NCBI GenBank assembly: GCA_963711155.1
Contig: CAVQDB010000003.1
Span: forward strand, 97,358-161,357
DNA: 64,000 nucleotides
Reading direction: 5' to 3'
From: an uncultured Armatimonadetes bacterium
Lineage (GTDB): Bacteria; Armatimonadota; UBA5829
This document shows positions 549 through 53,348 of the stretch, in pieces. The notes below the pieces were generated by a model that saw only the letters and a list, made by a program, of their open reading frames with translations, did no database searches and was not told the DNA's origin. Made by a program: the position numbers and the translations under genes. Numbering within the stretch: position 1 is the stretch's first letter; each line of letters begins with the position of its first letter.

Positions 549-557
549 ATATCCGTG

Positions 558-2328: not shown

Positions 2329-4333
2329 CGTCCCCTGTAATGCGCATGTCGATTCTCAGCGGCGGCGTAAGCTCGCCGCGGACCCTCGCATTCAGCTCAT
2401 CATCTATGGGGATGCCCTCCCGCTCGCTGATGAGCTTCGCCTGCCACGCGAACCACAGGTCCGTGAGTGTGACCTCGCCCTCCCGGATAGTGGCAAACTC
2501 GTGGCTCAGAATCTCCTCCACGCCGCTGAGATCATTGAAGCGCAGCGCGAGTCTCGCCACAACGATCAGAATCCGCTCGTGGCGGCGTATCGCCGGCGGC
2601 ACCCCAGCCACAAACGCGCGGAGTTCATCCCACCTGCCCGCTCTCTCCAGCATACCGGCATACTCTATCGCAAGCGGCGCGATCTTCGGCCCGATCTCCC
2701 ACGCCTGACGCATGAGGCCGATTGCCGCCTCCAACTCGCCCTCTCTTTCCGAGAGCGCGGCCAGGTTCCGATACGCCCACCCCGACGGCCTGCGCTCGAT
2801 CGACCGCGTCCACGCTTCGCGCGCGCCCGTCGGGTCAAGATCCTCCATCCGCATAACGCCCAGATGCAGCCAGCCCAGCCAGTGGTCGCTCGCCCTGCCG
2901 GCAATCGATTCCTCCAGCAGCGCGCGCCACTCCGGACCGGTCATATACTGCCCCGGCTCGTCCAGCACATCGCGCTCGGGCAGCCCACCATCCCTCAGCA
3001 GCGCCAACCACGGCTCCTGATCGGGCCCAAGATCATCGCCAAACGGCATCCCGCGCGGTCGGTGGTGCGCCCGCTTGTCATGCTGAACTCGTTTCAGCAC
3101 CCATTCCAACGCGCCCCACGCTTCTCCAGCGGACAGAACCTCCTCCGGCGCCCTCTCGGCAACCGCAGCGAACTCCACGTCCAGCCGTTCCAACTCATCG
3201 CCCGGCAGCATATCGTCCAGCGCGCTCTCGACCGATCCTCTCGCCTCACTCCAATCTCGCGATTGCGCCTTGGCAGGATCGACGCGCATCAGGCCGAACG
3301 CCTCCGTCCACGCCCATTCCGTGTTGGCGGGCATCGGCACGGACTCCAACTGCGTCCGAGCAAGGCCGCCCTGTATCTCCAGATAAGCCCGGCCCGGCCC
3401 CAGCAGGTGCTCCTGCCAGCGGCGACCGCCCCGGCCCGACCCCCACGCGAACATCTTCCGCCCGCGCAGCCTCGACGTGGACGCGTGAACCAGCCCCTCG
3501 CCGCGCCCGTCCACGCACGCCACCCACGGCCTGCGGCCCTCATCCAGGCGGAAGAACATCTCCCGGGAGCGGCTGATGCTGGTCGGGCAGGTGAGATCGC
3601 GACCGTCGAGCACCGGCAGCTCCGCGCACGACAGCCCGCCCTTGGCGTCATGGATCGCCGAATCCGCCGGCGCGATCACCCTGCGGTCAGGACTCTCCGG
3701 CACGGCGATATTCGTCCACCAATACATGGGAATCTCCGTGTCGTGGGGGTTGATGACGCGAACGCGCGCGAACAGGAATTCCGAGCCCGAGGGCAGATGA
3801 AAGTCGATCTGATATGGAAACCTCTTCACCCGCTCCCACGCATACAGCCTCAGCACGGGCCCACCATTCGCCGCCACTCTCGCCGCGAACATCGGCCCGC
3901 AGGTGAGGTAATGGTGCCCGCACAGCGGCGTGTTCCACTCGACCCCGCCCGCGATCCACGCGCTTCTCAGCGCCACGTTCGCCGGCTGGAAATGCTTGAC
4001 CGGTTCGAGAAGCTCGATTCCGGTGGGCTTATGCGCCAGCGACGCCAGCCGCCCACCTATCTCCGGCAGCACGACCGCCCTCAGGTGCTCGTTTTCCAGC
4101 GTGATCGCAACGAACTCGCGGGGCCGCAACTCGCGGTCAAACCCGTCCTGCATCCGGTAGGGCAGCACCCTGAACCTGATCTCCCAACCCAGATGAGTCC
4201 GGTCCGCCTCGGGTACGCTGTCGTCAACCTTGACCTGCGTGCTGGGGCTTGCGTGCCTGAAATGCGGCAGGGGATTCTCGGGGCCAAGACCGGCCGCGGG
4301 CAATGCGAGGCGATCGACAGTCAGTGTGGTCAT
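2315..4333 (-). CDS. large conserved hypothetical protein, DUF5107-like N-terminal region plus a C-terminal TPR-like helical region
   Basis: The 672-aa ORF has normal amino-acid composition. The C-terminal third is helical-repeat-like. It contains an in-frame copy of the ATGCTGAAC palindrome (peptide EWVLKRVQHD). Confidence 0.5.
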   Translation of the reverse strand: MTTLTVDRLALPAAGLGPENPLPHFRHASPSTQVKVDDSVPEADRTHLGWEIRFRVLPYRMQDGFDRELRPREFVAITLENEHLRAVVLPEIGGRLASLAHKPTGIELLEPVKHFQPANVALRSAWIAGGVEWNTPLCGHHYLTCGPMFAARVAANGGPVLRLYAWERVKRFPYQIDFHLPSGSEFLFARVRVINPHDTEIPMYWWTNIAVPESPDRRVIAPADSAIHDAKGGLSCAELPVLDGRDLTCPTSISRSREMFFRLDEGRRPWVACVDGRGEGLVHASTSRLRGRKMFAWGSGRGGRRWQEHLLGPGRAYLEIQGGLARTQLESVPMPANTEWAWTEAFGLMRVDPAKAQSRDWSEARGSVESALDDMLPGDELERLDVEFAAVAERAPEEVLSAGEAWGALEWVLKRVQHDKRAHHRPRGMPFGDDLGPDQEPWLALLRDGGLPERDVLDEPGQYMTGPEWRALLEESIAGRASDHWLGWLHLGVMRMEDLDPTGAREAWTRSIERRPSGWAYRNLAALSEREGELEAAIGLMRQAWEIGPKIAPLAIEYAGMLERAGRWDELRAFVAGVPPAIRRHERILIVVARLALRFNDLSGVEEILSHEFATIREGEVTLTDLWFAWQAKLISEREGIPIDDELNARVRGELTPPLRIDMRITGDVDSP

Positions 4334-4415
4334 TTGTCAATTGTAGCACATAGCAAGAGCGCAGCGAAGAACCACGTAGATTCTTCGCTGCGCTCAGAAT
4401 GACAGAGCCCAGTGG

Positions 4416-5391
4416 CTATTTGGGCTTCTTGCCCGCGCCTGGCTTCACATTCGGCGCCGGCATCGGATACTGCATCGGCGGAGGCGGGTTCTTGATCTGA
4501 TCCACCATATACTTGTACTGAGGCAGCTCGATCTTGATGTCGGACTTCTTCCTCTGTGCCTCGAGCTTCTTCTGGAAGTCGGTATCGGTCATGGTCTTCT
4601 GCAGCGCGGCAATGCCCTTGACCTCGGACTTGACCTTCTCGAAGCTCAGGTCGAGCTTGGGCTGGGTGCCCAGAACATTTAGAACCGCATACAGCGTACC
4701 GTACGGAGGCAGTTCCATGGTAAACGGCTTGCTTACCTTCCCCACCTTCAGCGGCTTGGCGGCGTCCCACAGGGCCGGCAACTTCCCGTTATCCTCGACG
4801 AAGGCCTTGGGAGTGCCTGTTACGGCAAACTCCTGGTCGGCATACTTTCCGACCGCCGCATCGAAGTCCATCCCGTTCTTGATCGCCTTTGCGGCGTCAT
4901 CGACCTTCTTCGAGGACGTGCTCAGCAGGACAGCCACCTGCTTGCGCGGCCCGTGCACGAAGCGAGGCTTGAGCTGGTTATACAAGGTCATCAGCTCGTC
5001 GTCCGTGAACTTATACATCTTTTCGCCGAGATTCATCCTGGCCTGCTGTTCGCGCAGGGTGCCCATGAAAGCAGCCTCACCGCCGGAATTCCGCACGCGG
5101 TCCTCATAGTTGCCATCGCGCTTGACAACCTCTATCTGCTTGTCGAGCTGCTCATCGGTTACCGGCACCTTCTCCTTCTCGGCCCAATTGAGCAGAACTT
5201 GCTGGTCGATGATCACCGGCAGGATCTGCCTGCCGAAGCCCATGCTCGAGGTACTCGCGGTACTGAGTTCCCGAGATCGGCTTTCCATCGACGGTCGCCA
5301 CCGTCTTTGGCAAGCCGGTTTCCTTGCCCCCACACCCCGCCAGCGCGAACGCCAGCATCGCAACCAGTATCAGGGCGGCTGTTCTCTTCAT
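4416..5391 (-). CDS. SurA/PpiD-like periplasmic chaperone lipoprotein (SurA N-domain type); frameshift near 5240
   Basis: The N-terminal ORF starts MKRTAALILVAMLAFALAGCGG, a lipobox. It continues in the 315-aa ORF, which resembles the SurA N-terminal chaperone domain. Confidence 0.5.
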
Positions 5392-5581
5392 AGTTGGTGT
5401 TTGCTCCTTTGAAATCGATGTCCGAGGTCGGAGGTCCTCTCGGCTCCGCCAGACGGCCACACGCAAGTCTTAGCCACGGTGCGTCTGTATTCCTGCCCGC
5501 CTGAGCAAACTACCCACTAAAGAAGAGCTTCAAACCACGGTTGGGAATAGTGGAACAACCGATATGGCGGCCAAATTCGGG

Positions 5582-5610
5582 TTGACTGCCCGCGGATTGG
5601 CTGCTATATT
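5582..5610 (+). promoter_or_regulatory. sigma70-type promoter, TTGACT-17bp-TATATT, upstream of amidase paralog 1
   Basis: The sequence gttgactgcccgcggattggctgctatattgg sits about 50 bp upstream of an AGGGAGA RBS and the ATG at 5663. Confidence 0.5.
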
Positions 5611-5662
5611 GGAGTTGTGACACGCCACTGTTCACAGTGTTGTGATACAAGGGAGAAGTATA

Positions 5663-8482
5663 ATGCATTGCCGCATCGCCACTCGCGTGCTCACGCTGAC
5701 CGTGAGCGCATGCCTCTTTCTCACCGCTTTGCCCGCGTTCTCTGCAGTAGTATGCTACCTTGACGCCGGCAATTCGCCTTATCTGATGGACTTGCCGGCC
5801 ATCACATCGCCGGTCGCGGCGCTCGACGCCCTCGCGTCTCCGCCCGCCGGGTTTGGCTCAGCCATTCCGCCCGGCACGCACGTCGTGTCGTTCATCGCCG
5901 AGCAGGACTACACCGAGGTGGACTTCTCCCAGGCGATCCTTGCCAACGGAATGGGCGAGTCGCGCATATCGAACATCTTCGACCAAGTGCGCATGACTCT
6001 CGAGCAGTTTGGCCTTTCGCGCAGCATAAGAATGACCGCTCAAGGCACACCGCTCTACGAGTATCTGCCACCGGTGCAGCCCGTCGAGCCGAGTCCTGAG
6101 GCACAGGCGGAGACCCCGCCACAGCCGTCCACCACCGGACTGGCCGGCAGGAAGATCACGCTGTCGCCGGGACACGGCCAGCGCTGGGCCGGCAGCAGTT
6201 GGCTATATGAGCGCCCCGTCTACTGCTCTTTTCCCTGTGAGGACGACCATAACGATGAGATCGTTCGCTACCTCGATATCTACCTGCGCCAGGACGGCGC
6301 GACCACCAAGCTCTGCAGGTGTATCGACAAGAGCTACGGCAACTACTCCAACGGCAACGCGTGGTGGAGAATGTCGGCTCCATACTGGCTCAAGAACATG
6401 GGCTATCCCTGTTCGGTATACGGCAGCTTGACCGGCTGCACTCTCGGCTCCGGCGCAGACGAGACTGATGACGGTATTCGAGCACGGCCGCTGGCCTCCG
6501 ACTACGACAACTCCGATATCTACATTTCCAGCCATACTAACGGCAACGCAGGCAACTGCTACGGCACCGGCTGCGCCACCGGAACCGCGACATACTACGA
6601 TACGTGCGCCGAGCACGCCACCTGGGGCGCCATAAGCAAGACGCTGGCTCAAGACGTCGAGGCCGCTATCGTCAGCGCGATCAGGACGAAATACGCCGAC
6701 TCCTCCTGGCGCGACAGGGGCACCGCCAACTCAAACGGCGGCTTCGGCGAGATCCGCATACCGAACCGCGCCGCCATTCTCATCGAGTTTGCGTTCCACG
6801 ACAGTTGCGACGGCGACGCCGTCTATCTCAAGGACAACTTCTTCAGGTCTACGTGCACGTGGGCCATGTATAAGGGCGTCTGCGACTACTTTGGATCCAC
6901 GCCCACCTGGGACTACTACTCCTACGAGATCGTGAGCAACGACATACCGGACACCATGAACCGCAACGAGACCCGTACCGCCCACATCACGCTTCGCGAC
7001 CGAGGCGTGCTGTGGAACGAGGCCAGGCAGTTCCGTCTCGGCGCGGTCGGCGACTCCGATCCGTTCTCAGCCTCGACCCGCTACACAATCACCGGAGAAG
7101 TCGAGCCCAGCGCGACCTACACGTTCACGCTCACCCTTACGGCACCCAGCACGGTCGGCGCCTACACCACCGACTGGAGAATGCTTCGCGAAGGCGTCAC
7201 CTGGTTCGGGCCGACCATCTCGAAGACCGTGACGGTAGTCGATCCGAACCCCGACGACGAGCCGCCCACCAAGCCCACCAACCTGACCGCAACGCTCGTG
7301 GGCCAGAGCCAGATCGATCTGGCATGGACGGCATCCACCGACAACCAGGGCGTCATGGGCTACAAGATATACCGCAACGGGTCGTTCCGCACGACCACCA
7401 CATCGACATCCTATTCCGATACAGGGCTGAGCTCCGGCGACACGTTCACCTATCAGGTATCGGCCTATGATTCGCACGACAACGAGTCCGAGCTATCCGA
7501 TCCGGCATCGGCCACCACGCCCGTCATCACGAACATCATCATAGACAACACCAGCGCCTCATTCGTCGGCAGTTGGTCGACCGGAACCGACGGGACCACC
7601 AAGTATGGCGCCGACTACCGCTATGGCGCCTGCTCTCCGAGCACCGGCCGCATCGCGAGGTGGGTCCCGGACGTGGACGTGCCCGGCATGTATCTGGTCT
7701 ATGTGTGGTACGCCAGCGACACCAATAGATCGACCAGAGCCCCGTACACCGTCGTCTACAGCGGCGGATCGACTATCGTGCAGGTGGACCAGACCGCCAA
7801 CGGCGGAAAGTGGGTCACGCTTGGCATGTTCCCGCTTATCGCGGGCATCAACGGCTACGTTCAGCTCTCCAATGGCACCGGCGAATCGGCCTCGACCTAT
7901 GTGGTCGCCGATGCGGCCAGATTCTTCTACGTGAGGCCGTTTGACACGACCGCGCCGACCATCAACTCGGTTCTCACCACGCCGAGACTCGTCTCGGGCG
8001 GTGTGCCGATTTCGGTCAGTGTTTCGGCCACTGACGACGTCGGAGTAACCGGCGTTACGGCCTGTGGTACCACTCTTTCGCTGACGGGCAGTTCGTGGAC
8101 CGGCAGCATCAGCACCGATCCGGCACTCGGAGAGCACACCGTCACGGTGACCGCCGCCGATGCCGCCGGCAACGAGGTGACAAACAGCGATCAGACCTAT
8201 GTGACCGCGCCGGTCTACGGAATCCCGAACGCCGGCCTGACCACCGGTGACGCGGCGGAGTACGCGGCCAGCAAGTTCCTGTTCAAGACCTGGGGGTCGG
8301 TCACTTTCGTGGACGCCAGTCATTTCGACATCAACGACGGCTCGCCAACGTCCGTGAGGGTCTATTGCCCCAGCCACAATCTCACCTCGGGCAGATTTGT
8401 GACGGTGATCGGTGTCTGGAACACGACGACCAGCCCGGCGCAGCTCGAGGTCCAACCGAGTCAGGTGACCGTAGTGTATTAG
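5663..8482 (+). CDS. secreted multidomain N-acetylmuramoyl-L-alanine amidase, paralog 1 (SP / GerMN-like / Amidase_3 / NBR1-like / FN3 / golvesin-C-like / Ig-like / OB-like)
   Basis: Signal peptide. The GerMN-like pattern is PVAALDALASPPAG..GSAIPPGT. Amidase_3 motifs are ITLSPGHG, SSHTNG, GTATYY and IPNRAAILIEFAFHDS, in a Cys-rich context. The FN3 segment is KPTNLTATLVGQSQIDLAWTAS. The golvesin-like segment is ASFVGSWSTGT..YGADYRYG. Confidence 0.75.
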   Translation: MHCRIATRVLTLTVSACLFLTALPAFSAVVCYLDAGNSPYLMDLPAITSPVAALDALASPPAGFGSAIPPGTHVVSFIAEQDYTEVDFSQAILANGMGESRISNIFDQVRMTLEQFGLSRSIRMTAQGTPLYEYLPPVQPVEPSPEAQAETPPQPSTTGLAGRKITLSPGHGQRWAGSSWLYERPVYCSFPCEDDHNDEIVRYLDIYLRQDGATTKLCRCIDKSYGNYSNGNAWWRMSAPYWLKNMGYPCSVYGSLTGCTLGSGADETDDGIRARPLASDYDNSDIYISSHTNGNAGNCYGTGCATGTATYYDTCAEHATWGAISKTLAQDVEAAIVSAIRTKYADSSWRDRGTANSNGGFGEIRIPNRAAILIEFAFHDSCDGDAVYLKDNFFRSTCTWAMYKGVCDYFGSTPTWDYYSYEIVSNDIPDTMNRNETRTAHITLRDRGVLWNEARQFRLGAVGDSDPFSASTRYTITGEVEPSATYTFTLTLTAPSTVGAYTTDWRMLREGVTWFGPTISKTVTVVDPNPDDEPPTKPTNLTATLVGQSQIDLAWTASTDNQGVMGYKIYRNGSFRTTTTSTSYSDTGLSSGDTFTYQVSAYDSHDNESELSDPASATTPVITNIIIDNTSASFVGSWSTGTDGTTKYGADYRYGACSPSTGRIARWVPDVDVPGMYLVYVWYASDTNRSTRAPYTVVYSGGSTIVQVDQTANGGKWVTLGMFPLIAGINGYVQLSNGTGESASTYVVADAARFFYVRPFDTTAPTINSVLTTPRLVSGGVPISVSVSATDDVGVTGVTACGTTLSLTGSSWTGSISTDPALGEHTVTVTAADAAGNEVTNSDQTYVTAPVYGIPNAGLTTGDAAEYAASKFLFKTWGSVTFVDASHFDINDGSPTSVRVYCPSHNLTSGRFVTVIGVWNTTTSPAQLEVQPSQVTVVY

Positions 8483-8494
8483 CAGAACCTCCTT

Positions 8495-8526
8495 GCTTCC
8501 GAGACCGCAATACCGGTCTCGGAAGC
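8495..8526 (+). terminator. hairpin immediately after amidase paralog 1; no strong T-tract
   Basis: gcttccgagaccg caata ccggtctcggaagc. Confidence 0.3.
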
Positions 8527-8572
8527 TACTCGTCTGCAGGTCATGGTATACTGAACTAGGAGGTTGATCAAT

Positions 8573-11400
8573 ATGCACTACAGCCTACTGGATCGCGGTC
8601 TCATTCTGGCCTTCATTCTGGCCTGTATTCTCGCAGTAGCGGGTCCATCGTCGGCGGCCGTAGTATGCTACCTGGACGCCAACAACTCACCTTATCTTAT
8701 GGACATCCCGAGCATAACGTCGCCGGTCGAGGCGCTGGACGCTCTCGCCTCCCCGCCGGCCGGGTATAGCTCCGCCATTCCGCCGGGCACGCACGTCGTA
8801 TCCTTCATTGCCGAACAGGACTACACCGCCGTAGACTTCTCGCAGGCAATCGTTGCGCTCGGAATGGATGAAGTTCGAATATCGAACATCTTCGATCAGG
8901 TGCGCAGCACGCTCGAGCAGTTCAGTCTTTCGCCGAACATAAGGACAACCGCGCAGGGCACGGCGCTCTACGAGTACTTGCCGCCGGTACAGCCCATCGA
9001 GCCGAATCCGCAGGCGCAGGAGCAGACCCCGCCGCAGCCGTCCACCACCGGACTGGCCGGCAAGAAGATCACGCTGTCGCCCGGACACGGCCAGGTATGG
9101 CTGGGCAGCTACTGGGGCTACGAACGCCCCGTTACCTGCGGGCTCGCCTGCGAGGACGATCACAACGACGAGATCGTGCGATTCCTCAACATCTACCTGC
9201 AGCAGGACGGCGCCACAACCAAGCTCTGCAGATGCATCGACAAGAGCTACGGCAACTACGCCAACGGCAACGCCTGGTGGAGAATGTCCGCGCCGTACTG
9301 GCTCAAGAGCCTGGGCTATCCGTGCTCCGTCTACGCCAACTCCACCGGCGACTGCAATCTTGGCTCCGGCGCCAGCGAAACCAGCGACGGCATCCGGTCC
9401 CGGCCGCTGGCCTCGGACTACGACAACTCCGACATCTACATTTCTCATCATACCAACGCTCTTTCCGGCTACTGCACAGGCTCCGGCTGTCCGAACGGCA
9501 CGATTACCTACTATGACACCTCCAGCGAGCACGCCACCTGGGGCGCCATAAGCAAGACCCTGGCCCAGAAGGTCCAGTCCGCGGTCATCAGTGCGATCAA
9601 GACCAAGTACTCGGATTCGTCGTGGCGCGACAGGGGCACGGCTGACTCAGACGGCGACTATGGCGAGATTCGCATTCCCAACCGCGCCGCCATCCTCATA
9701 GAGCTGGCCTTCCACGATACCTGTGACTGGGATGCCGAGTATCTCAAGGACAACTTCTTCAGGTCTACATGCATGTGGGGCATATACAAGGGCGTCTGCG
9801 ACTACTTCGGCACGACGCCCACCTACGACTACTACTCCTACGAGATCGTGAGCAATGACATACCCGACACGATGAACCGCAACGAGACTTATACCTGTCA
9901 CATCACGCTTCGCAACCGAGGCGTGCTCTGGTCGGAGGCCAGGCAGTTCCGCCTGGGCGCGGTCGGCGACTCCGACCCGTTCACGACCGCGACGCGCTGC
10001 ACCATCACCGGAGAAGTCGATCCCAGCGCGACCTATACGTTCACGCTCACCCTCAAGGCACCCAACACGGTCGGCGCCTACACGACCGACTGGAGAATGC
10101 TTCGCGAGGGCGTTTCCTGGTTCGGCCCGACCGTTTCCAAAACCGTTCTCCGTGGTCGATCCAACGCCCGACGACGAGCCGCCCACCAAGCCCACCAACC
10201 TGACCGCAACGCTCGTGGGCCAGAGCCGAGATCAACCTGGCCTGGACCGCTTCCACCGACAACCAGGGCGTCATGGGCTACAAGATATACCGCAACGGGT
10301 CGTTCCGCACGACCACCACGGTGACATCGTATTCCGACACCGGGCTGAGTTCCGGTGACACGTTCACCTATCAGGTATCGGCCTATGATTCGCACGATAA
10401 CGAATCCGAGCTGTCCGATCCGGCATCGGCCACTACGCCGGTCGTCACGAACATCATCATAGACAACACCAGCGCCTCATTCATCGGCAGTTGGTCGACC
10501 GGAACGGACGGGACCACCAAGTATGGCGCCGACTACCGCTACGGCCCCTGTTCGCCGAGCACCGGCCGCATCGCGAGGTGGATCCCGGACGTGGACGTGC
10601 CCGGTATGTATCTGGTCTATGTTTGGTACGCGAGCGACACCAATAGATCGACCAAGGCTCCATTCACCATTGTCTACGACGGTGGATCGACGACCGTGGA
10701 GGTGAACCAGACCGCCAACGGCGGAAAGTGGGACCCGATTGGCATTTTCCCGTTCATAGCGGGCATCCACGGTTACGTTCAGCTCTCCAATGGCACAGGC
10801 GAATCGGCCTCGACGTATGTGGTTGCCGATGCGGCCAGATTCTTCTACGTGAGGCCGATCGATACGGCCGCGCCGACCATCAACTCGGTTGTCGCGACGC
10901 CGCGCCTGGTCTCCGGCGGTGTGCCGATTGCGGTCAGTGTCTCGGCGACTGACGACGTCGGAGTAACCGGCGTTACGGCCTGCGGCGCCAGTCTCTCGCT
11001 GACGGGCAGTTCGTGGACCGGCAGCATCAGCACCGATCCCGCGCTCGGAGAGCATGTCGTGACGGTGACCGCCACCGACGCCGCGGGCAACGAGGCGACG
11101 AACACCGATGAGACCTACGTGACCGCCCCGGTCTACGGAATCCCGAACGCCGGCCTGACCACCGGTGACGCGGCGGAGTACGCGGCCAGCAAGTTCCTGT
11201 TCAAGACCTGGGGGTCGGTCACTTTCGTGGACGCCAGCAATTTCGACATCAACGACGGCTCGCCAACGTCCGTAAGGGTCTTCTGCCCCAGCCACAACCT
11301 GACCACGGGCAGATTTGTAACGGTGATCGGTGTCTGGAACACGACCACCAGCCCGGCGCGGCTCGAGGTCCAGCCGAGTCAGATATCTATCGTGTATTGA
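8573..11400 (+). CDS. multidomain amidase paralog 2, same architecture; frameshifted between about 10140 and 10275
   Basis: ORFs 8564..10324 and 10273..11400 are collinear with paralog 1 at about 85-90% identity. The frame changes inside the NBR1/FN3 junction. Confidence 0.65.
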
Positions 11401-11403
11401 ACC

Positions 11404-11475
11404 GAAACACGCATCGTTGTCCGCTCGTCCAGTCCAGGGAGCGCCGGCGATGCGTGTTTCTTTGATTATTCGGGG
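11404..11475 (+). terminator. long inverted repeat gaaacacgcatcg...cgatgcgtgtttc followed by a T-rich tract, after paralog 2
   Basis: A 13-bp perfect inverted repeat, then tttctttgattatt. Confidence 0.4.
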
Positions 11476-11537
11476 CTGCGGTTCGGCCTGAGACATCATC
11501 GTCCGATCGGCGATGACTATAATGGGGGAGGTATTCG

Positions 11538-14360
11538 ATGCGTTGCTGCGTCTGCTGCCGGCTTCTGACCGCTCTAATCGTCCTCATGTCCGTTCTTATA
11601 ACCTCGGGGCCGTCGTTCTCGGCTATCGTGGTCTACCTCGACGACGGCGGCTCGCCCCACGGCGTTAGTCTGCCCGGGATAGTCTCGCCCGTCGCGGCGC
11701 TCGACGCGCTCGCGTCGCCGCCGGCCGGGCTGAAGTCCGCGATACCGCCTGGTACGCGCGTGCTGTCGTTTGCGGCCGGCCAGGAGTATACCGACGTTGA
11801 CTTCTCGCAGACCATCCTCTCGCTGGAAATGGACGACGCGCGTCTCGAAAACATCTCCGAGCAGGTGCGCGGCACTCTGGAGGGAATGGGACTGACGGCG
11901 AGCGTAAGGATGACCGTACAAAACGCGCCGCTCTGCACCTACCTTCCGCCAGATCCTCACGTTGCGCCGCGCGCCAGGGCCCAGAGCGAGCCACTGCCAT
12001 CCGTGGGAGCGCTCTCGGGCAAGACGATTTCGCTCTCGCCCGGCCACGGTCTGCGCTGGAACGGCGGTTCCTGGGTCTACGATCGCCCTGTAACGTGCGG
12101 ACTGGCGCGCGAGGACGATCACAACATCGAGATCACGCGCTATCTGGACATCTATCTCCGGCAGGAGGGCGCCACCACGATCAACTACAGGTGCCTGGAC
12201 AAGAGCGCCGGGACCTACGCCCCGGCCAACACGCCCTGGTGGCAGATGGGCGGATCCTACTGGCTCCAGCACATCGGCTATCCCTGCTCGGTATACGCCT
12301 GCGATTCCGGTGACTGTGAGCTTGCCGCCGGAGACGACGAAGCAACCGACAACATCCGCTCCCGCCCCGTCGCCTCCGACTACGACGATACCGATGTCCA
12401 CATAGCCATGCATACCAACGCCTTGTCCGGCGACTGCTACGGCACCGGCTGTCCAAACGGCACGGAGACGTTCTACGACAATGGCGCCGAGCACTCAGAT
12501 TACGGCCCCATAAGCCGCACCCTCGCGCAGGATATCCAGACCCAGCTTATAGACGTCATAAGAACGAAGTACGCGGACTCCTCCTGGCGCGACAGGGGCG
12601 CGAAGGACGCCAACGGCGACTACGCCGAGACACGCATCCCGCACCGGCCCTGCGCACTCGTGGAACTCGCATTCCACGACAGTTGCGACAGGGACGCCGC
12701 CTACCTCAAGGACAACTGCTTCAGGTCGATGGTAACCTGGGCGATCTACAAGGGGATCTGCAACTTCTTCGGCGTCACGCCCACCTGGGACCTCTACTCG
12801 TACGAGATAACCAGCGACGACATTCCCGACGTCATGGACAAGTTCGAGACCAGGGATGTACACGTCACGCTGCACAACCGCGGTTGTCTCTGGAACGAGG
12901 CGCAGAGGTTCCGTCTGGGGGCCGTAGACGAGAGCGACCCGTTCACCACTCTGACCAGGGTGACGATCCCGACGGAGGTCGAACCCGACCAGGACCACAC
13001 GTTCACGATACCCTTCACGGCGCCCGGCCAGGTGGGCACCTATCACACGGACTGGCGGATGGTGCGCGACTACGGCGTCTGGTTCGGCCCGACCGTCTCC
13101 AAGGATGTACAGGTGCTCGACCTCACTCCGGACACGGAGGCGCCGTCAGTTCCGGCCGATCTGTCCGCAAACGTTGTCAGCATCAATCAGATCGACCTGT
13201 CCTGGTCGGCGTCCACTGACAACATCGGCGTTGTGGGCTACAAGGTCTACCGCAACGGCGTTCTTCTCACCACCACCACGGCCACGTCCCACTCCGACAC
13301 GACGGCCACTTCCGGCAGCGTCTACGCATACCAGGTGTCGGCTTACGATCTCCACGGCAACGAATCGCCCAAATGCGACGCTGTCGTGGTCGGAACGTCG
13401 CAGGTAACCGACTTCATCATCGACAATACCGCCGCTCTGCTCGTCGGCTCATGGTCCACCGGAACCGCCGCCGGCCAATACGGCGACAACTACCGCTACG
13501 GCACCTCTGCCTTCAGCGCGGGCCGCATCGCCAGGTGGATCCCCGATATCGATGTCCCCGGTGTCTACTCGGTGTCCATCTGGTATCCGCAGGCCGCGAA
13601 CCAGTCCACTATCTCTCCGTTCACGGTCATCTACGACGGCGGATCGACCGTCGTACACGTCGATCAGACGACCGGAGGAGGCGCGTGGCTGGAGATCGGC
13701 CAGTTCCCGTTCGCCGTCGGCAGAACCGGATATCTCCAGCTAACCAACGCTACCGGCGAACCCGGCACGACCTATGTGGCCGCGGACGCGGCGCGCTTCA
13801 AGCTGCTGATCCCGACGGACACGACTCCGCCGGCCATCAACTCGGTCACGGTTTCCCCCACCCTGGCCGCCGCGGGCCGTCCGGTGGACGTGTCCGTTTC
13901 GGTAACGGACAACGTCGCGGTCACGGGCGTAACGGCCAACGGCGCCGCGCTGGCGCTCAGGGCAATCGACACCTGGGGCGGCACGCTCACGGCTGATCCC
14001 GAACTTGGCGAGCATACGGTCGCCGTCGTGGCCCACGATTCGGCGAGCAATGAGAGCACGGACGCGTCCGCGGGCTATCGGACGGCGCCTGTCTTCGGAC
14101 TGAACAACTCGGCGCTGCTCGTGGGCGGGGCCGTGCGGGAAGGCGCGGCGAGATACCTGTTCAAGACGTGGGGCTATACGACGGTCGTGGACGCCGATAA
14201 CTTCGAGGTTGCCGATGGGTCCATGACGCCCGTGAAGGTCCACTGTCCGGGCCACGGACTGACGACGATGAAGTTCGTTGCGGTGTTCGGCATCGCCAAC
14301 TTCGCGGCGACTCCGCTCCAACTCGAAGCGCAGCCCGGACAGGTTCAGGTGGTCTACTGA
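11538..14360 (+). CDS. multidomain amidase paralog 3, a more divergent copy, 940 aa, intact
   Basis: Same domain order. Amidase_3 motifs are ISLSPGHG, AMHTNA, GTETFYD and IPHRPCALVELAFHDS. It ends with the shared C-terminus ...LQLEAQPGQVQVVY. Confidence 0.75.
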   Translation: MRCCVCCRLLTALIVLMSVLITSGPSFSAIVVYLDDGGSPHGVSLPGIVSPVAALDALASPPAGLKSAIPPGTRVLSFAAGQEYTDVDFSQTILSLEMDDARLENISEQVRGTLEGMGLTASVRMTVQNAPLCTYLPPDPHVAPRARAQSEPLPSVGALSGKTISLSPGHGLRWNGGSWVYDRPVTCGLAREDDHNIEITRYLDIYLRQEGATTINYRCLDKSAGTYAPANTPWWQMGGSYWLQHIGYPCSVYACDSGDCELAAGDDEATDNIRSRPVASDYDDTDVHIAMHTNALSGDCYGTGCPNGTETFYDNGAEHSDYGPISRTLAQDIQTQLIDVIRTKYADSSWRDRGAKDANGDYAETRIPHRPCALVELAFHDSCDRDAAYLKDNCFRSMVTWAIYKGICNFFGVTPTWDLYSYEITSDDIPDVMDKFETRDVHVTLHNRGCLWNEAQRFRLGAVDESDPFTTLTRVTIPTEVEPDQDHTFTIPFTAPGQVGTYHTDWRMVRDYGVWFGPTVSKDVQVLDLTPDTEAPSVPADLSANVVSINQIDLSWSASTDNIGVVGYKVYRNGVLLTTTTATSHSDTTATSGSVYAYQVSAYDLHGNESPKCDAVVVGTSQVTDFIIDNTAALLVGSWSTGTAAGQYGDNYRYGTSAFSAGRIARWIPDIDVPGVYSVSIWYPQAANQSTISPFTVIYDGGSTVVHVDQTTGGGAWLEIGQFPFAVGRTGYLQLTNATGEPGTTYVAADAARFKLLIPTDTTPPAINSVTVSPTLAAAGRPVDVSVSVTDNVAVTGVTANGAALALRAIDTWGGTLTADPELGEHTVAVVAHDSASNESTDASAGYRTAPVFGLNNSALLVGGAVREGAARYLFKTWGYTTVVDADNFEVADGSMTPVKVHCPGHGLTTMKFVAVFGIANFAATPLQLEAQPGQVQVVY

Positions 14361-14379
14361 GCTCGTGCCTACGGGACCC

Positions 14380-14470
14380 GTTAGCCCTGAGTAGCCCCGT
14401 CCGCGCGCAGGCCGAGCTTATCGAAGGACGGGCCGTATCGAAGGGCGGTGGCCCCGTAGACCGTCCCCGG
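14380..14470. repeat. GTAG-type REP-like hairpin element between convergent genes
   Basis: gccctgagtagccccgtcc...ggacgggccgtatcgaagggcgg. It shares the CCTGAGTAG and GTATCGAAGGGCG cores with the loci at 23360, 26390-26530 and 33925-34375. Confidence 0.5.
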
Positions 14471-14489
14471 GCTGCCGGACACACACGGC

Positions 14490-17144
14490 TCAGTCGAACG
14501 GAGTGATCCACGCGGGCGCGGCGTCCAAACGCATCTGCGAGCCGTAGAGGCTCAGTATTCCGCGCACCCGCACGTACTGCCCGCTGGTCAGGCCGTGACC
14601 GTTCACGTACGTGTCGATCGGCTCGCCGGAACCGTCGTCGAGACGGAAATGCCCGGTGTCAACAACGGTCACCCTGCCACAGAGGGCAAACTGGTACTTC
14701 GACGCGCCCGCTATCGTAACCGCATCCCGTGCCGCCCGGTTCGTCACCGCCATGACGGTCGTTGTCGCGTAGCTGCCGCTGGAGTTGAGCGCTGTGTTGT
14801 CGAACACGTCCGTCGCCACGATACTGACTGCATGCGGCCCCATCTGGCTGCTGGCAGGCAGCGAACCGATCCACGTGGACCCCGCGCCCTTCGACAAGTC
14901 CGCGCCGTTCGCGGTCACCGACGCAACTCCCATATTGTCGCTGACCATCGCCAGAACACTCACGTTGTCGCCCGGAAGCGCCAGCTTGGTCGGAACGATC
15001 ACGACCGAGATGACCGGTGGCGTGATGTCGCCGTATAACTGCGAACTGGCCTTCGTCCAACCCGTCCATCCACCGCCGGTCTGCGACTTGCACCACAGAA
15101 AGCCGTCCGACTGAGGTATGAACACCTGCAGGGTCCCGTCCTCGTTGTGGCCGACGGTTACCCCGCCGGTGCTCGCTCCGCCGAACGATTCCCAGCCCGA
15201 GAAACCGCCGTCGGTGGACGTCTGATACTTGTGCCAGACCTGACCCGCGCTGTCGCAGTAGAACACGTCCTGGTTGTAGCCGACGCCCATGACGATCGTG
15301 CCCGGCCTGCGGCCCACAGCCGGATCGGAGGCAGCCGAGCCGCCCAGCGACGTCCAGCCGCTCCAACTCGTCCCGACAGTAAGCCCGTTCTGCTGATTGC
15401 GCCGGATCGTGCCGTCCGAGAACCTGCAGTAGACCTCCAGGCGGCCGTCGAAGCTCTTTCCCATCACCGGGTCGCCGCCGAGCGTGCCGCCAAGGCTCGA
15501 CCAACCAGACCAGGCGCCGTCGTTGAGCTGCCACTTGTGATAGAGCTGATTGTCCGTCCCGCGAACGAACACCTCCTCGCGGCCCTCCCAGTTGAGCGCG
15601 ACCACCGGATCGGCCGTGACGCTTCCCCCAAGCGACTCCCACGCCTGCCAACTGCCATCGTAGTTCTGCCATCTGTGCTGAATCGTCCCATCAGCCATCC
15701 GGCAGAACACGTCCAACCGTCCATCAGGGCTCTTGCCGACCGCGGGCCTGCCCGCGACCGCGCCGAGGCTCGTCCAGCCCGGCTGGCCACTGCCCCCCCA
15801 GCTCCCGTTCGGCCCATCGCTCTGTCCGGCGTAGTAGAGATCGCCATCCGTAAAGCGAGCAAAGACCGAGTCGCCGCCGCTGCGGTTAATGACCGCCACC
15901 GGATCGCAGGCCGCCGTGCCGCCCATATCGACCCAGTTCGGCCATGAGCCGTTCGCCGAAGCCTGCCTGGCACGATACACCTTGCCGGTCACGCCCTTTG
16001 CGAACATCTCCATCTGCCCGCTGCGGTTGATGGCAATCGGATCGCGGGACTTATATGGGAAGTAGGGAAAGCGCCAGTAGACGTTGTTCGGAATGCACGG
16101 GATCGTCGTTCCGCCGTGCCCCAGCCACACATTCGCGATCTCGTTCTTGTCGTATATGACGTGATCCCACGTGCTGGTTGAGCCGGCGGGGTCATTGCAA
16201 ATGTAATTGCCGTCGGAGGTGATCCCCACGACGAGAACAAGGTGACCGGAAGTGGATGAGATCGGCGAATGGGTCAGTTGGCCGGCGCTGTAGGCCATTC
16301 CGAACTCGACCGGACAGCCCTGCGCGATGAGATCGCGCAGCGGCTGCTGGCCGTTCGACCGGGAGTAGTATGACTTGAATCCATACTTTGCCGCCTCTTG
16401 CGCGATGAACGGCCAGTTGCCGTACATATCGTTGTAGCTGTCGTACTCTTCGGTAACGACATACTCGGTGGACAGGAACGCGCCGCAGTAGGCCATCGCC
16501 ATCGACATGGACGTCGGACCGCAGATGCAGCAGGGATCGACCGTTGACCAGTTCTGCGATCTGAACGGCACGGCCAGCGAGGCCGTATACCCCGGATTGG
16601 GCAGCGGAACGTAGGGGACCGGCGTGCTGGTGTCAGCGTAGCAGACCGACATGAGCCTGAGCGTGGGCGTGACGCCGACCGTGTTGGTATAGAGCGTCAC
16701 CCGATATTCGACGCGCGAGTGCAGCGACGGCAGCATGAGCGTATCGTCGTCGATTCCGTTCGACCTGCTGCCCTTGACGCGAGAGATGCCCCCCGGAATC
16801 GTCCCCTGGCGCGCTATCTCGAACCACGACGTCCACGATCCGTTGTACGCGCGCACCTCGGTGCGAAAGCCCGTCCCGGGCGGCATATCGACATTCCACG
16901 AGCAAACCACGTTGTTGACCCCGAACGGCGCATTGGTCCCGTAGAAACCCGCCGTGCCGCTGGTAGCCGAGTTCGCCAGCCGGACTCCCGTGCCGGAGAC
17001 ATAGATCGTGTTGGAGTCGAGCTGGATCGGTGACAACTGCTCCTGCAGGTCGAAGACGGTGGTGGAGGTCTTGTATGAAGACTGTGCGAACGCGGCAGGC
17101 GCGGCAACAGCCGCGACAGCCAGTATAATGCATACTGCTCTCAT
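14490..17144 (-). CDS. secreted peptidase_C39-like (C39_2/BtrH-like) protein with a 7-blade PLL/tectonin-like beta-propeller lectin region and the shared C-terminal Ig+OB-like module
   Basis: Signal peptide MRAVCIILAVAAVAAPAAFA. The peptidase motif is DPCCICGPTSMSMAMAYCG...GHLVLVVG..NDP. Seven W..LGG....DP.V blades follow. The C-terminus aligns with the amidase paralogs. Confidence 0.65.
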   Translation of the reverse strand: MRAVCIILAVAAVAAPAAFAQSSYKTSTTVFDLQEQLSPIQLDSNTIYVSGTGVRLANSATSGTAGFYGTNAPFGVNNVVCSWNVDMPPGTGFRTEVRAYNGSWTSWFEIARQGTIPGGISRVKGSRSNGIDDDTLMLPSLHSRVEYRVTLYTNTVGVTPTLRLMSVCYADTSTPVPYVPLPNPGYTASLAVPFRSQNWSTVDPCCICGPTSMSMAMAYCGAFLSTEYVVTEEYDSYNDMYGNWPFIAQEAAKYGFKSYYSRSNGQQPLRDLIAQGCPVEFGMAYSAGQLTHSPISSTSGHLVLVVGITSDGNYICNDPAGSTSTWDHVIYDKNEIANVWLGHGGTTIPCIPNNVYWRFPYFPYKSRDPIAINRSGQMEMFAKGVTGKVYRARQASANGSWPNWVDMGGTAACDPVAVINRSGGDSVFARFTDGDLYYAGQSDGPNGSWGGSGQPGWTSLGAVAGRPAVGKSPDGRLDVFCRMADGTIQHRWQNYDGSWQAWESLGGSVTADPVVALNWEGREEVFVRGTDNQLYHKWQLNDGAWSGWSSLGGTLGGDPVMGKSFDGRLEVYCRFSDGTIRRNQQNGLTVGTSWSGWTSLGGSAASDPAVGRRPGTIVMGVGYNQDVFYCDSAGQVWHKYQTSTDGGFSGWESFGGASTGGVTVGHNEDGTLQVFIPQSDGFLWCKSQTGGGWTGWTKASSQLYGDITPPVISVVIVPTKLALPGDNVSVLAMVSDNMGVASVTANGADLSKGAGSTWIGSLPASSQMGPHAVSIVATDVFDNTALNSSGSYATTTVMAVTNRAARDAVTIAGASKYQFALCGRVTVVDTGHFRLDDGSGEPIDTYVNGHGLTSGQYVRVRGILSLYGSQMRLDAAPAWITPFD

Positions 17145-17323
17145 CGATACTACCTTCTGCGCCTTCTGCCTGCCCGCACGGCGCCAACACTTGCATTCTA
17201 CCACATTATCCACGGTCTGTGGGGGCAGGTCGTGGGATACCGCCCTGAGCCTGCCGGGTCTCCGGCACTCGCGCGGCCCGACCAGGTATTCTTACCAGTT
17301 TACCAGAGGTTTCCCCGATAGCC

Positions 17324-17456: not shown

Positions 17457-18833
17457 ATGACCCTTAGGAAACCTCTTCTTGTCGTCTCCCGTTCTGGTGA
17501 TGGCGGCTTTCGTCGTCGGGTTGGCTGTGCCGGCCTCGGCGAACGTCTACGCGTCGTCGCTGCAAGTGACCGGAGACAAGTCCTTCAGCTACACCCTCAA
17601 TGAGAATGCCAGCACGAACGTGCAGATGCAGGTGTGGCAGGTCGGCGGCGGAATGGTCTATTCGCAGGACCTCGGCGCGCAGACCAAGGGCGTCCAGAAC
17701 TGGACTTGGAGCGGCGCTGGCGCTGTCGCCGGTAACAGCTACAAGGTCAAGATCGTAGCTACCGGCACAAACCAGACGCGGTTTGCCAAGATCAGCACCG
17801 ACAGCAACACTGCGATGTGCTATTGGCTGCCGACTGGAGTCTCTGTCAACAAGGACCAGAACAGCGCCGAGTTTGGCAAGATCTTCATCTCCAACGGCCA
17901 GGCTGGTACCGACCACCTCGGCACGTATACCGGCGATGGCTTCTTCAGAGTAAACGCCGACTATACGGCCGACATCTTCGGCAACGGCGGCCGGGGCTGG
18001 GGCGGCACCACTGAGACGCACAACTTGAGGAGTACCGTCGGACCTGACGGCCACCTCTACTTCTGCGACGCGTGGGACGACACTGTGTGGGAGTTGAACG
18101 ATGACTTGTCGACCGTCACTCAGTTGATCGACCTGAGCAACAAGAGCAACGGCTCCACTCAGTGGTGTTCAGCCATCGTTGTTGAGGGAACACAGGCAGA
18201 GGGCAATCGCAAGATCTACGTCTGTGACAGCAACTACGATGACACAACCCACAAAGGTCTGATGATGTACGACCTCGGCGCAAACGCCACGGCTACGCAC
18301 AACGACCATGGCACGCAATACATCGGCCCGGGTTACTTCAACTACTTCCCGGTGGACGTCGACCGTGACGCCGCCGGCAACTGGTACATGAACAACTACC
18401 GGTCTTCCACTACCCAGGCTCCGTTCTTGATGAAGTTCAACGACAGCGCGTCGCTGCCCATCAACACCGCTGCTTGGGAAGCTCCGAAGAGCTACACCTA
18501 TTGCGATTCAGTCGCCGTTGACGACAAGGACGGATGGGTAGCCGGGATAACTTACACCAACGGTATGACCTACGTCTTCAACAAGGAGACCGGTACCTCG
18601 TCGGCAGCTTCGACAGCGGCAATCACGCAGACGACATCACGTTCGACGCAGCCGGCAACATCCTTGTCTGCGACAACTACAATGAGTACGTAAGGGTGTT
18701 CTCGCCGGGCGGAACCAACGAGTTCACCACCACGTCCTACTTCGCGTTCGACGTGGTTCCTGAGCCGTCCTCGCTGCTGGCCCTGCTGATTGGCCTGCCT
18801 GGACTGCTCATCTTCAAGCGACGCAGGCACTAG
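17457..18833 (+). CDS. PEP-CTERM-anchored secreted protein, paralog 1; two apparent 1-bp frameshifts (near 17490 and near 18600)
   Basis: The ATG at 17457 gives MTLRKPLL.., collinear with the paralog-2 N-terminus. The C-terminal ORF ends VVPEPSSLLALLIGLPGLLIFKRRRH. Confidence 0.55.
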
Positions 18834-19075: not shown

Positions 19076-20473
19076 ATGACTCTAAACAAACCTCTGTTCG
19101 TCGTCTCCGTCTTGGCGATGGCGGCATTCGTCGTCGGGCTGGCAGTGCCGGCTTCGGCGAACGTATATGCCTCCGGCCTCACGGTGACGGGTGACAAGTC
19201 CATCAGCTACATACTCAACGAGAATGCCGATACAGGCATTCAGATGCAGGTGTGGCAGGTCGGCGGCGGTATGGTCTATTCGCAGGACCTCGGCGCCTTG
19301 GACAAGGGCACCCACAACTGGACATGGAACGGCGCTGGCGGCGTCGCGGGCAACAGCTACAGCATCAAGATCGTAGCGTCGTCCGCGGGCCACACCGGCT
19401 GGACGAAGATCAGCGACGACAGCACCTTGTGCCAGTTCGAGAACCCGCGGGGGTTAGCTGTCAACACCTACCAGAACACTGCCAACTTCGGCAAGATCTA
19501 CGTGTCGAACGTCCGAACCAGCCCAACCGCTACGGGAAGAGCAATGCAGAACGGAACCTACGCCCTGAACGCCGATTGCACAGACGACGGCTTCCACACG
19601 GGCGGAGTGGCGTGGACCAACACTAGCACTACCACTGCCGCGCGGCACGGCTGCGTTGGACCGGACGGCCACCTCTATCTGGCGGACTACAGCAATGACC
19701 TGGCCTACGAGTTCAGCGAGGACATGTCAACCGCCACGCTGCTGATCGACGGCACCAACAAGACCGCCAACCAGTGGGTGCGCGACATCTGTGTGACCGG
19801 AACCGGCGCAGATCGCAAGATCTATCTGGCTAACCCCTACTGGGTATCAGGTGGAGATCTTTCCAGGACCGGCATCGTCGGATACGATCTCGGCACGAAC
19901 ACTAGGGTTACACCCGGCGACACCGGCACGGAGATCATAAACTTCGCTGACAACGGCCTGCTGTATCCCTATGATGTCAAGCGGGACAGTGCCGGAGACT
20001 GGTATTCCTCCCAGTACCGGGCGACTGCGGGTACTGGAGCGCCGCTCATCAAGTGGCAGGACGGCTCGGCGCCGATCGGTCCAGGGAACATCATGTGGCA
20101 GGCCGACCAAGCCTACACCTACAACAATGGCTTCGACATCTACGAGCCGGGAAACCTCATAGCGTACTGCAACTTCTACTCCGGCGACGGTAGCGTGTAT
20201 ATCTTCGACATGGCTACCGGCGCGTACGTCGATCAGTTCGCCACGGGCACTGAGACTTACAAGACGCCCAGGGACATCGCGTTCGACGCGGCCGGCAACA
20301 TCGTGACCGTGGACAACTACACTGAGCGCATGCGCATCTGGTCGCCGGGTGGAGAAAACAGCTTCACTACCACGTCCTACTTCGCGTTCGACGTCGTTCC
20401 CGAGCCGTCCTCGATGCTGGCCTTGCTGGCCGGTATTCCCGGACTGCTCATCTTCAAGCGACGCAGGCACTAG
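19076..20473 (+). CDS. PEP-CTERM-anchored secreted protein, paralog 2 (465 aa)
   Basis: Signal peptide. The C-terminus VVPEPSSMLALLAGIPGLLIFKRRRH is the PEP-CTERM exosortase sorting signal. Confidence 0.7.
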   Translation: MTLNKPLFVVSVLAMAAFVVGLAVPASANVYASGLTVTGDKSISYILNENADTGIQMQVWQVGGGMVYSQDLGALDKGTHNWTWNGAGGVAGNSYSIKIVASSAGHTGWTKISDDSTLCQFENPRGLAVNTYQNTANFGKIYVSNVRTSPTATGRAMQNGTYALNADCTDDGFHTGGVAWTNTSTTTAARHGCVGPDGHLYLADYSNDLAYEFSEDMSTATLLIDGTNKTANQWVRDICVTGTGADRKIYLANPYWVSGGDLSRTGIVGYDLGTNTRVTPGDTGTEIINFADNGLLYPYDVKRDSAGDWYSSQYRATAGTGAPLIKWQDGSAPIGPGNIMWQADQAYTYNNGFDIYEPGNLIAYCNFYSGDGSVYIFDMATGAYVDQFATGTETYKTPRDIAFDAAGNIVTVDNYTERMRIWSPGGENSFTTTSYFAFDVVPEPSSMLALLAGIPGLLIFKRRRH

Positions 20474-27702: not shown

Positions 27703-27713
27703 ACGATTTCCTC

Positions 27714-48903: not shown

Positions 48904-48910
48904 TTACCTT

Positions 48911-50543: not shown

Positions 50544-50607
50544 CGCGCCCTTGAGAACGGCGGGGGTGCCGGTGTCAACTAATACGTGTGCTCTGTAATA
50601 ATGCCAT

Positions 50608-51122: not shown

Positions 51123-51242
51123 GATTTGCCTCCGATTGTAGTTTCTTTGTTTTCAGTCATATAACATGCCGTCTGCTTTCGGCCCTCAGCGTTCAGCGGG
51201 CGGCGGGAGAATTACGAATTATGATTCACGAATCTGGCTCTA

Positions 51243-53345: not shown

Positions 53346-53348
53346 CTG

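Follow-up and report, generated by a model that had tools for sequence, protein, structure and literature searches.

A common C-terminal Ig+OB module in tandem predicted wall amidases and a neighboring peptidase-lectin of an uncultured Armatimonadota bacterium

A locus of an uncultured Armatimonadota bacterium, located within a stretch of 64,000 nucleotides of contig CAVQDB010000003.1 (assembly GCA_963711155.1, positions 97,358 to 161,357; hereafter, the window), encodes three paralogous amidases in a row (P1, P2 and P3) and, on the opposite strand, a protein that combines a cysteine peptidase with a lectin-like propeller. The new element of this locus is a strictly C-terminal module, composed of an Ig domain and an OB domain, that is common to all four proteins. 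We consider it about an even proposition that the locus represents a lineage-specific tandem expansion, from one copy to two and then to three, of Sec-exported, disulfide-rich zinc amidases that bear this module as a tag and would work on cell walls. The initial annotation, made from the sequence alone, had not recognized the locus as a described system; we would rather regard the locus as a local expansion within a large family of wall amidases from Armatimonadota, already annotated in databases, next to a peptidase-lectin that is specific to the clade. Secreted multi-domain amidases as such would hold little surprise for a specialist; the tag and the conserved tandem sets offer concrete, testable leads in a phylum whose biology has hardly been approached by experiment.

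The Ig+OB end of the peptidase-lectin is 35-37% identical to those of the amidases over approximately 180 residues. The structure modelled for the last 97 residues bears out the earlier OB-like call: the predicted fold is a five-stranded closed beta-barrel that matches solved OB domains of the RPA/Stn1/anticodon-binding type. The Ig portion is weakly detected by the Pfam profile Big_13 in the whole proteins (E about 1e-3) and reaches 1e-5 when a 90-residue segment is searched in isolation; the Ig+OB module itself is not represented in Pfam or NCBIfam. With the OB alignment as the query, a word-indexed search among proteins gave only 4 matches; an exhaustive profile search of 1.84 billion representative proteins yielded 500 clusters at E <= 1e-3, including 273 at E <= 1e-10. 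Across the 500 clusters, the carriers range from 200 to 1700 residues and, with few exceptions, the OB domain occupies the extreme C-terminus; in the loci that we fetched, every strong match ends 0-2 residues from the C-terminus, on Amidase_3-family, Amidase_2 and C39_2 proteins. When 40 carriers were sampled and surveyed with Pfam, the remaining domains included RCC1 (7), LVIVD (4) and FG-GAP (3) propellers, C39_2 peptidases (3) and subtilases (2), along with GHL10, Amidase_2, CHAP, matrixin, FGE-sulfatase and ChW (one each). The phylum is named for 16 of the 18 GTDB-derived loci that carry the tag, and in each case it is Armatimonadota or Armatimonadetes; amidase family members in metagenome-assembled genomes (MAGs) labelled Verrucomicrobiota or Planctomycetota lack it. 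The window's own genome encodes at least one further carrier, a DUF5122 propeller (P0157). Outside the window, the GHL10 enzyme P0125 combines two Golvesin_C domains with the Ig+OB tag, so that wall amidases and glycosidases have accessory modules in common.

Substrate-binding modules usually shift position among architectures. Because Ig+OB is a folded module that, within one phylum, keeps to the C-terminus of exoproteins that are otherwise unrelated, it can be read as a sorting or anchoring tag and not as a substrate-binding module, and we infer that it would serve as a common localization device, either for surface or matrix anchoring or as an export signal, and would not take part in catalysis. 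A bolder version, by functional analogy with the C-terminal domain of the type IX secretion system or with dockerin, would have Ig+OB act as a hitherto undescribed, Armatimonadota-specific signal that sends a set of exoproteins, among them wall amidases, C39 peptidases, subtilases, glycosidases and lectin-like propellers, to the cell surface or a common scaffold, with the amidases and the peptidase-lectin forming a single surface-displayed, wall-degrading battery; this we advance only tentatively, as rather doubtful.

The amidases consist, in order, of a signal peptide, GerMN, Amidase_3, NBR1/FW, fn3, Golvesin_C, Ig and OB. The GerMN, Amidase_3, NBR1, FN3, golvesin-like and Ig calls of the initial annotation are all upheld by Pfam profile searches, and the motifs from which it argued (the Cys-rich amidase core, the W-rich NBR1 region and ASFxGxW..YGxDYRY) are present in the sequence; of the eight modules it counted, seven can be named. 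The strongest match is Golvesin_C, with E-values of 2e-33 to 7e-30 and 104-116 bits against a cut-off of 31.6, over nearly the whole profile; Germane matches at 5e-7 to 2e-5, N_BRCA1_IG at 4e-7 to 8e-6, which is at or near the cut-off, and fn3 in P1 at 5e-6. Golvesin_C has been placed within a carbohydrate-binding class that includes lectins (PMC9166713), and the domain here is a putative carbohydrate binder of the CBM6/35/36-like class (CBM, carbohydrate-binding module). GerMN has been proposed to bind peptidoglycan (PMC2732212). By inspection, all four proteins of the locus start with a hydrophobic, signal-like segment that ends in small residues; a lipoprotein signal was considered and rejected, also by inspection only, because the cysteines of the signal peptides lie within the hydrophobic core rather than at its end.

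The Amidase_3 domain (PF01520) scores 39.5, 44.7 and 54.4 bits in the three paralogs (E from 8e-10 to 2e-14), compared to the gathering cut-off of 27, over profile positions 1-173/174. In an alignment of 20 diverse homologs, with identity down to 36%, H170, E192, H292 and E376 (P3 numbering) are invariant and occupy GHG, ED, HTN and ELAFHD motifs; by motif, H170, E192 and H292 are the predicted zinc ligands and E376 the predicted catalytic Glu. Five cysteines are also invariant and two more are nearly so, a pattern that would fit a disulfide-bonded extracytoplasmic enzyme. The closest solved sequence to the amidase core is LytH of S. aureus (7TJ4; E 9e-4), and the CwlD equivalog model TIGR02883 matches at 32 bits, below its cut-off of 221.55. 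The prediction that these proteins are exported N-acetylmuramoyl-L-alanine amidases with several modules of glycan-binding type, catalytically competent to judge from residue conservation, is well supported.

In the fourth gene, the C39-like domain and the seven-blade, PLL/tectonin-like propeller noted earlier are both substantiated: Peptidase_C39_2 (PF13529) matches with an E-value of 5e-15, DUF346 is supported as well, and the propeller matches the Photorhabdus lectins PHL, PLL2, PLL3 and PLL at 1e-81 to 1e-68 (PHL 5MXE, 1.6e-81; PLL3, 6e-76). Seven W-rich blades can be counted in the sequence, and Beta-prop_PLL is a precomputed annotation of the orthologs; NCBIfam lectin models stay below their cut-off (47 versus 200 bits). 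The propeller is therefore of the PLL/PHL type and a putative sugar binder. To the earlier domain list we add a CBM-like beta-sandwich domain of 160 residues at the beginning of the protein and the Ig+OB module at its end. The C39_2 assignment combines the profile match with a papain-like fold and a Cys/His dyad, in which both the cysteine (ICGPTS) and the histidine (GHL) are conserved (Cys188 and His281 of the 342-residue query in the alignment). The closest solved structures of this domain include B. anthracis 3ERV and the pseudomurein endoisopeptidase PeiR, at approximately 19-20% identity, and the CBM-like domain together with C39_2 also occurs in stand-alone Armatimonadota proteins of about 350 residues. 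Peptidase_C39_2 has been catalogued among the catalytic domains of phage lysins (PMC8223927). A bacteriocin-processing C39/ABC system was considered and rejected: a signal peptide is present, ABC domains are absent from the protein, and the nearest ABC transporter gene (23974-26259), 7 kb away, lacks C39.

The phylogenetic tree separates a P1-type clade (P1 and P2 of the window, L007_a, P0001, L001 and L003_a) from a P3-type clade (P3 of the window, L007_b/P0007, P0008 and L003_b/P0012). Because both types have orthologs elsewhere, the split between P1 and P3 is old and both types have been retained, in agreement with the long maintenance that had been deduced from the divergence of P3. The P1/P2 duplication is private to the lineage of the window. 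It had been dated as recent from an estimated 85-90% identity; the recent, lineage-specific origin holds, whereas the estimate does not, the DNA identity being 84% and the protein identity rising from 79% in the N-terminal half to 89.5% in the C-terminal one. The synonymous divergence (dS) between P1 and P2 is similarly uneven, being higher in the 5' half (0.69) than in the 3' half (0.26). A fourth paralog on the same 1,672,289-bp source contig outside the window, P0060, is identical to P2 in the NBR1-fn3 region and divergent in its N-terminal half (56% identical to P1); it lacks the two frameshifts of P2 (see below) and has a different one later. The uneven dS and the P0060/P2 identity suggest gene conversion among the copies or some assembly chimerism.

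In related contigs, the same neighborhood recurs, with GHL10, DUF5107-TPR and the SurA-like peptidyl-prolyl isomerase (PPIase) on one side and the C39-lectin, an unknown or NHL protein, URO-D and PAS-SpoIIE on the other. Between these flanks, L001 has one amidase copy, L007 and L003 have two, and the window has three. The syntenic contigs derive from hot-spring or digester communities (JGI 3300009503, 3300031463). The L003 contig stops after the second amidase, and a C39-lectin is found on a separate contig, L084, of the same metagenome. Amidase and C39-lectin are adjacent in three genomes of the clade; outside the window, these include at least L001 and L007. A phage or mobile-element origin was rejected because the flanks are ordinary chromosomal genes that are syntenic across genomes.

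Of the three paralogs of about 940 residues reported initially, P1 (946-aa ORF, open reading frame) and P3 (940 aa) stand as described, and P2 is not a single ORF in this assembly. Compared to P1, extra bases at two points of P2 (Table 1) throw the gene into three successive frames and leave two ORFs, 8564-10324 and 10273-11400; the source annotation of P2 comprises only a 583-aa N-terminal fragment (P0020). This could mean that P2 is a true pseudogene and the array consists of two working amidases and a decaying copy, a view to which the spacing of the frameshifts, 82 nucleotides apart and neither of them in a long homopolymer, lends some weight, as does the truncated gene call. We nevertheless consider a pseudogene improbable. 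Deletion of both extra bases restores an ORF of 944 codons without a stop, and the ratio of nonsynonymous to synonymous divergence (dN/dS) between P1 and the repaired P2 is 0.19 on either side of the frameshifts, so that the P2 reading frame was under selection until very recently, or still is. Moreover, P2 is not alone: within 24 kb, frameshifts also affect at least three unrelated genes, namely, the GHL10 gene (558-2328, minus strand) near 1950, the NHL-repeat paralog of a PEP-CTERM protein (17479-18830, plus strand) near 18600 and the PAS-SpoIIE gene (22117-23251, plus strand) near 23132, and the [FeFe]-hydrogenase/NuoF-like genes at 47900-57950 (minus strand) are fragmented. Breaks as frequent as roughly one every 5 kb, spread over genes with no relation to one another on a 1.67-Mb source contig, are typical of long-read assembly error; given the other frameshifted genes nearby, the insertions in P2 are read as probable assembly errors, and P2 is very probably intact in the organism.

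The array belongs to an extensive family. A protein search with P1 yielded 268 matches among the scored candidates, most of which contain the core of Germane, Amidase_3 and N_BRCA1_IG, with or without fn3, followed by variable C-terminal modules; the named relatives are N-acetylmuramoyl-L-alanine amidases from Armatimonadota MAGs. A further scan, with one genome per species, detected 159 relatives at 75 loci; every genome concerned is an uncultured MAG with the label Armatimonadota, Verrucomicrobiota, Phycisphaerae or Planctomycetales. Overall, the relatives come mostly from Armatimonadota. Single genomes contain several copies, and the closed chromosome OY970325.1 has seven loci or more; the architecture that had been called unusual is, accordingly, not rare in the phylum. 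Our literature searches found no report of it. Tandems of two or three copies are present in 14 of the 82 fetched loci, several of which overlap or duplicate one another, and the triples in L054, L066 and L067 are orthologous position by position in the tree; conserved tandem sets are a recurring feature of the family. In OY970325.1 (about 1.14 Mb along; L006/L018), a family member has as its neighbors an Amidase_2 protein and a protein in which Golvesin_C is repeated several times.

In the proposed mechanism, which we infer from the domain composition, the amidases would strip peptide stems off the glycan strands, the C39_2 peptidase would cooperate with them by cleaving cross-links or stem peptides, and the choice of the target surface would fall to the lectin and CBM modules, with GerMN, NBR1/FW, fn3 and Golvesin_C around the amidase core as putative glycan- or wall-binding modules. 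The enzymes would be exported past the periplasm, and exogenous or detrital peptidoglycan would be a likelier target than the septum of the producer; we regard action on exogenous walls as evenly poised. Purified Gram-positive peptidoglycan, supplied as the only substrate, has led to the enrichment of uncultured Armatimonadetes (PMC7511781), which makes wall scavenging plausible for the phylum.

Several observations weigh against this interpretation. The window encodes a YadA-like membrane anchor of the trimeric autotransporter adhesin type (a 734-aa protein, 35967-38171, minus strand) and a SurA-like chaperone, and the organism is therefore probably diderm; with a Sec signal only, the enzymes would be left in the periplasm, the natural site of autolysins, and we identified no route of export across the outer membrane. 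The tag is not limited to wall hydrolases but is also present in propellers, subtilases and a GHL10 glycosidase, and since many non-wall enzymes bear it, its presence in two proteins is no proof that they cooperate. The synteny with the C39-lectin is confined to close relatives (70-85% identity), where inherited gene order is possible, and no C39-PLL neighbor was found at 75 more distant amidase loci.

The periplasmic location leads to an alternative under which the amidases are housekeeping autolysins for cell separation and wall remodelling, with GerMN performing the targeting function of AMIN in AmiB and AmiC and the paralogs serving the septum, elongation and morphogenesis. GerMN has indeed been tied to envelope morphogenesis (PMC2732212), the closest solved relative, LytH, is a housekeeping amidase, the gene for a periplasmic chaperone is a conserved neighbor, and no immunity-like gene was seen. 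The near-universal, multi-copy presence of the family in these MAGs and the strong purifying selection between P1 and P2 would also be expected of such enzymes. However, at least seven copies per genome, equipped with CBM-like and lectin modules, are far above the needs of division; the PLL/PHL-type lectin and Golvesin_C suggest glycan targets that are not the murein of the producer itself (PMC9166713); and the Ig+OB tag is common to exoprotein-like subtilases, glycosidases and propellers. There is, furthermore, no Pfam match to AMIN in the paralogs at E <= 0.1 and no LytM/M23 gene in the flanks, and the spacing of 84 residues between the third zinc ligand, H292, and the catalytic E376 would leave little room for an AmiB-type autoinhibitory helix. 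On balance, the autolysin explanation seems to us unlikely, but not markedly so.

The cooperation between the array and the C39-lectin can be questioned separately. Under a second alternative, the two would be independent secreted proteins that are adjacent through shared ancestry, without forming a functional unit, and the tag would be a general mark of the exoproteome. The convergent orientation of the amidase and C39-lectin genes implies that they are not co-transcribed, and because the entire neighborhood is syntenic (GHL10, DUF5107, SurA, NHL, URO-D and PAS-SpoIIE), the adjacency in close relatives can be explained by inherited order. An alignment scan for the C39-lectin found no relative in genome contigs and, in metagenomes, only two contigs, both from the window's clade, to which the full C39-PLL fusion is, by these scans, confined. 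Against this stands a distant Armatimonadota genome (about 40% identity): in L081 (JBMNES010000001.1, Armatimonadota MAG SBF912LR0HQ0044, 3704-17286), three consecutive genes on the same strand specify proteins of the Amidase_2 (1453 aa), Peptidase_C39_2 (1110 aa) and Amidase_3 (1819 aa) families, each of which has Ig+OB at its end, so that a tagged C39_2 peptidase has been placed independently between two tagged amidases. At five distinct loci, an Amidase_2 gene also lies no more than 10 kb from a family member, and C39_2 peptidases account for 3 of the 40 sampled tag carriers. We consider the absence of any functional unit a possibility of some substance, although the less probable one. The wall-hydrolase toolkit suggested by the initial annotation thus receives some comparative support, from the row in L081 and the adjacency of the C39-lectin, tempered by a tag that is not specific to hydrolases and a fusion that is limited to one clade.

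That toolkit had been associated with predatory or competitive lysis. Pfam searches at the thresholds used detected no T6SS, T7SS (type VI and VII secretion system) or CDI (contact-dependent inhibition) effector domains and no adjacent immunity or secretion genes in the four proteins or the 10-kb flanks, and literature searches found no report of predatory Armatimonadota. The results are compatible with predatory or competitive lysis, with the scavenging of dead walls and with housekeeping autolysis alike.

The layout of the locus is summarized in Table 1. The likely start codon of P1 is ATG 5663, which is preceded at a distance of seven bases by AGGGAG (5650-5655). The promoter candidate upstream matches 10 of 12 consensus positions and has an extended -10 element; such sites are no more numerous in the region than in shuffled sequence. 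P3 is identical to the database protein P0011, and the peptidase-lectin, which is convergent to the array, starts at an internal ATG in the source annotation (884 aa, P0129). In L074, too, a SurA-like PPIase gene is located some 6 kb away from two amidase genes in tandem. Rfam yielded no match anywhere in the window, and no convincing intrinsic terminator was found between the genes.

Table 1. Features of the amidase/peptidase-lectin locus (window positions, or residues of the indicated ORF)
Feature	Position	Strand	Remarks
SurA-like PPIase (Rotamase_2 + SurA_N_3)	4416..5363	-	divergently transcribed; conserved neighbor of the array in the window's clade
Sigma-70-like promoter candidate upstream of P1	5582..5610	+	TTGACT, 17-nt spacer, TG-TATATT
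P1 (P1-type amidase)	5663..8482	+	946-aa mechanical ORF starts at GTG 5642
P2 (recent P1 duplicate)	8573..11400	+	broken by two single-base insertions near 10146 and 10228
P3 (P3-type amidase)	11538..14360	+	940 aa; module order as in P1; 57% identical to P1
C39-like peptidase-lectin	14490..17144	-	ORF from 17213, 907 aa
OB domain, P1	8198..8479	+	ends 0-2 residues from C-terminus
OB domain, second copy	11107..11397	+	ends 0-2 residues from C-terminus
OB domain, third copy	14067..14357	+	ends 0-2 residues from C-terminus
OB domain, fourth copy	14493..14777	-	ends 0-2 residues from C-terminus
P1 Germane	residues 57-138 (946-aa ORF)		Pfam
P1 Amidase_3	residues 172-414		Pfam
P1 N_BRCA1_IG	residues 476-532		Pfam
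P1 fn3	residues 544-623		Pfam
P1 Golvesin_C	residues 632-761		
P1 Big_13	residues 796-850		Pfam
P1 OB	residues 853-946		
Peptidase-lectin CBM-like	residues 44-205 (907-aa ORF)		preceded by signal peptide
Peptidase-lectin Peptidase_C39_2	residues 214-343		
Peptidase-lectin propeller	residues ~385-725		
Peptidase-lectin Ig	residues 726-812		
Peptidase-lectin OB	residues 813-907		

Several other genes in the window bear on the biology of the organism. A secreted FlgD_ig/NHL protein (19076-20473, plus strand) ends in VPEPSS, a hydrophobic helix and KRRRH, a PEP-CTERM sorting signal, and the organism should accordingly have an exosortase system; an upstream paralog (17479-18693) has a matching C-terminus in another frame (18633-18830). 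There are several GHL10 glycosidase-like and CBM_4_9 genes (26554-32266 and 558-2328, both on the minus strand). The gene fragments in the region 47932-57951 (minus strand) correspond to the large subunit of an [FeFe]-hydrogenase, a NuoF-like flavoprotein, ferredoxin-like domains and a pyridine-nucleotide oxidoreductase, a combination suggestive of electron bifurcation by the hydrogenase and of an anaerobic or fermentative way of life.

Armatimonadota are widespread and have barely been cultured, and we know of nothing that has been established on how they build, remodel or attack cell walls. The present analysis indicates that they possess a large, diversified family of peptidoglycan amidases that are predicted to be secreted, that bear lectin-like modules and that often occur as conserved tandem sets. 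Bacterial necromass is a large pool of carbon and nitrogen, and such diversification would fit a role in its recycling; the enzymes might also be of practical interest as modular lysins. Should Ig+OB turn out to be a true signal for sorting or anchoring, its carriers would delimit the surface proteome of the phylum, and a partner machinery would be implied.

Comparison with known systems delineates what is conventional in these proteins and what is not. Similarly to CwlV, CwlD, LytH and AmiA/B/C, the paralogs score above the Amidase_3 gathering threshold and possess a His-Glu-His zinc triad and a catalytic Glu. Unlike standard Amidase_3 proteins, they have a core of about 245 residues, compared to the 174 positions of the profile, with Cys-rich insertions, and they lack AMIN, LysM, SPOR and SH3b domains; the division amidases AmiA/B/C, in particular, are defined by an AMIN targeting domain and an autoinhibitory helix that is released by LytM-type activators, a combination that was not found here. 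The frame of the family is instead an N-terminal GerMN, a fixed NBR1/FW and fn3 extension and then variable C-terminal modules. The fusion of GerMN to Amidase_3 has a precedent in Halothermothrix orenii, where it was seen as suggestive of peptidoglycan binding by GerMN (Rigden and Galperin 2008, PMC2732212); that report, to which our proteins are likened by description, concerns a single two-domain protein, whereas here there are seven modules, hundreds of members and tandem arrays. The peptidase differs from 3ERV and PeiR in carrying an obligatory N-terminal CBM-like domain. Its propeller is seven-bladed, as in the PLL/PHL and BP39L-family lectins, but the known PLL/PHL lectins stand alone at about 370 aa, and here the propeller is internal, between a cysteine peptidase and the Ig+OB tail. 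Finally, like the C-terminal domain of the type IX secretion system (T9SS), dockerin and SLH, Ig+OB is an autonomous folded module (approximately 95-185 residues) attached to functionally unrelated exoproteins; unlike the T9SS beta-sandwich, dockerin and SLH, it contains an OB barrel, so that the likeness is one of logic only and not of membership in any of these families.

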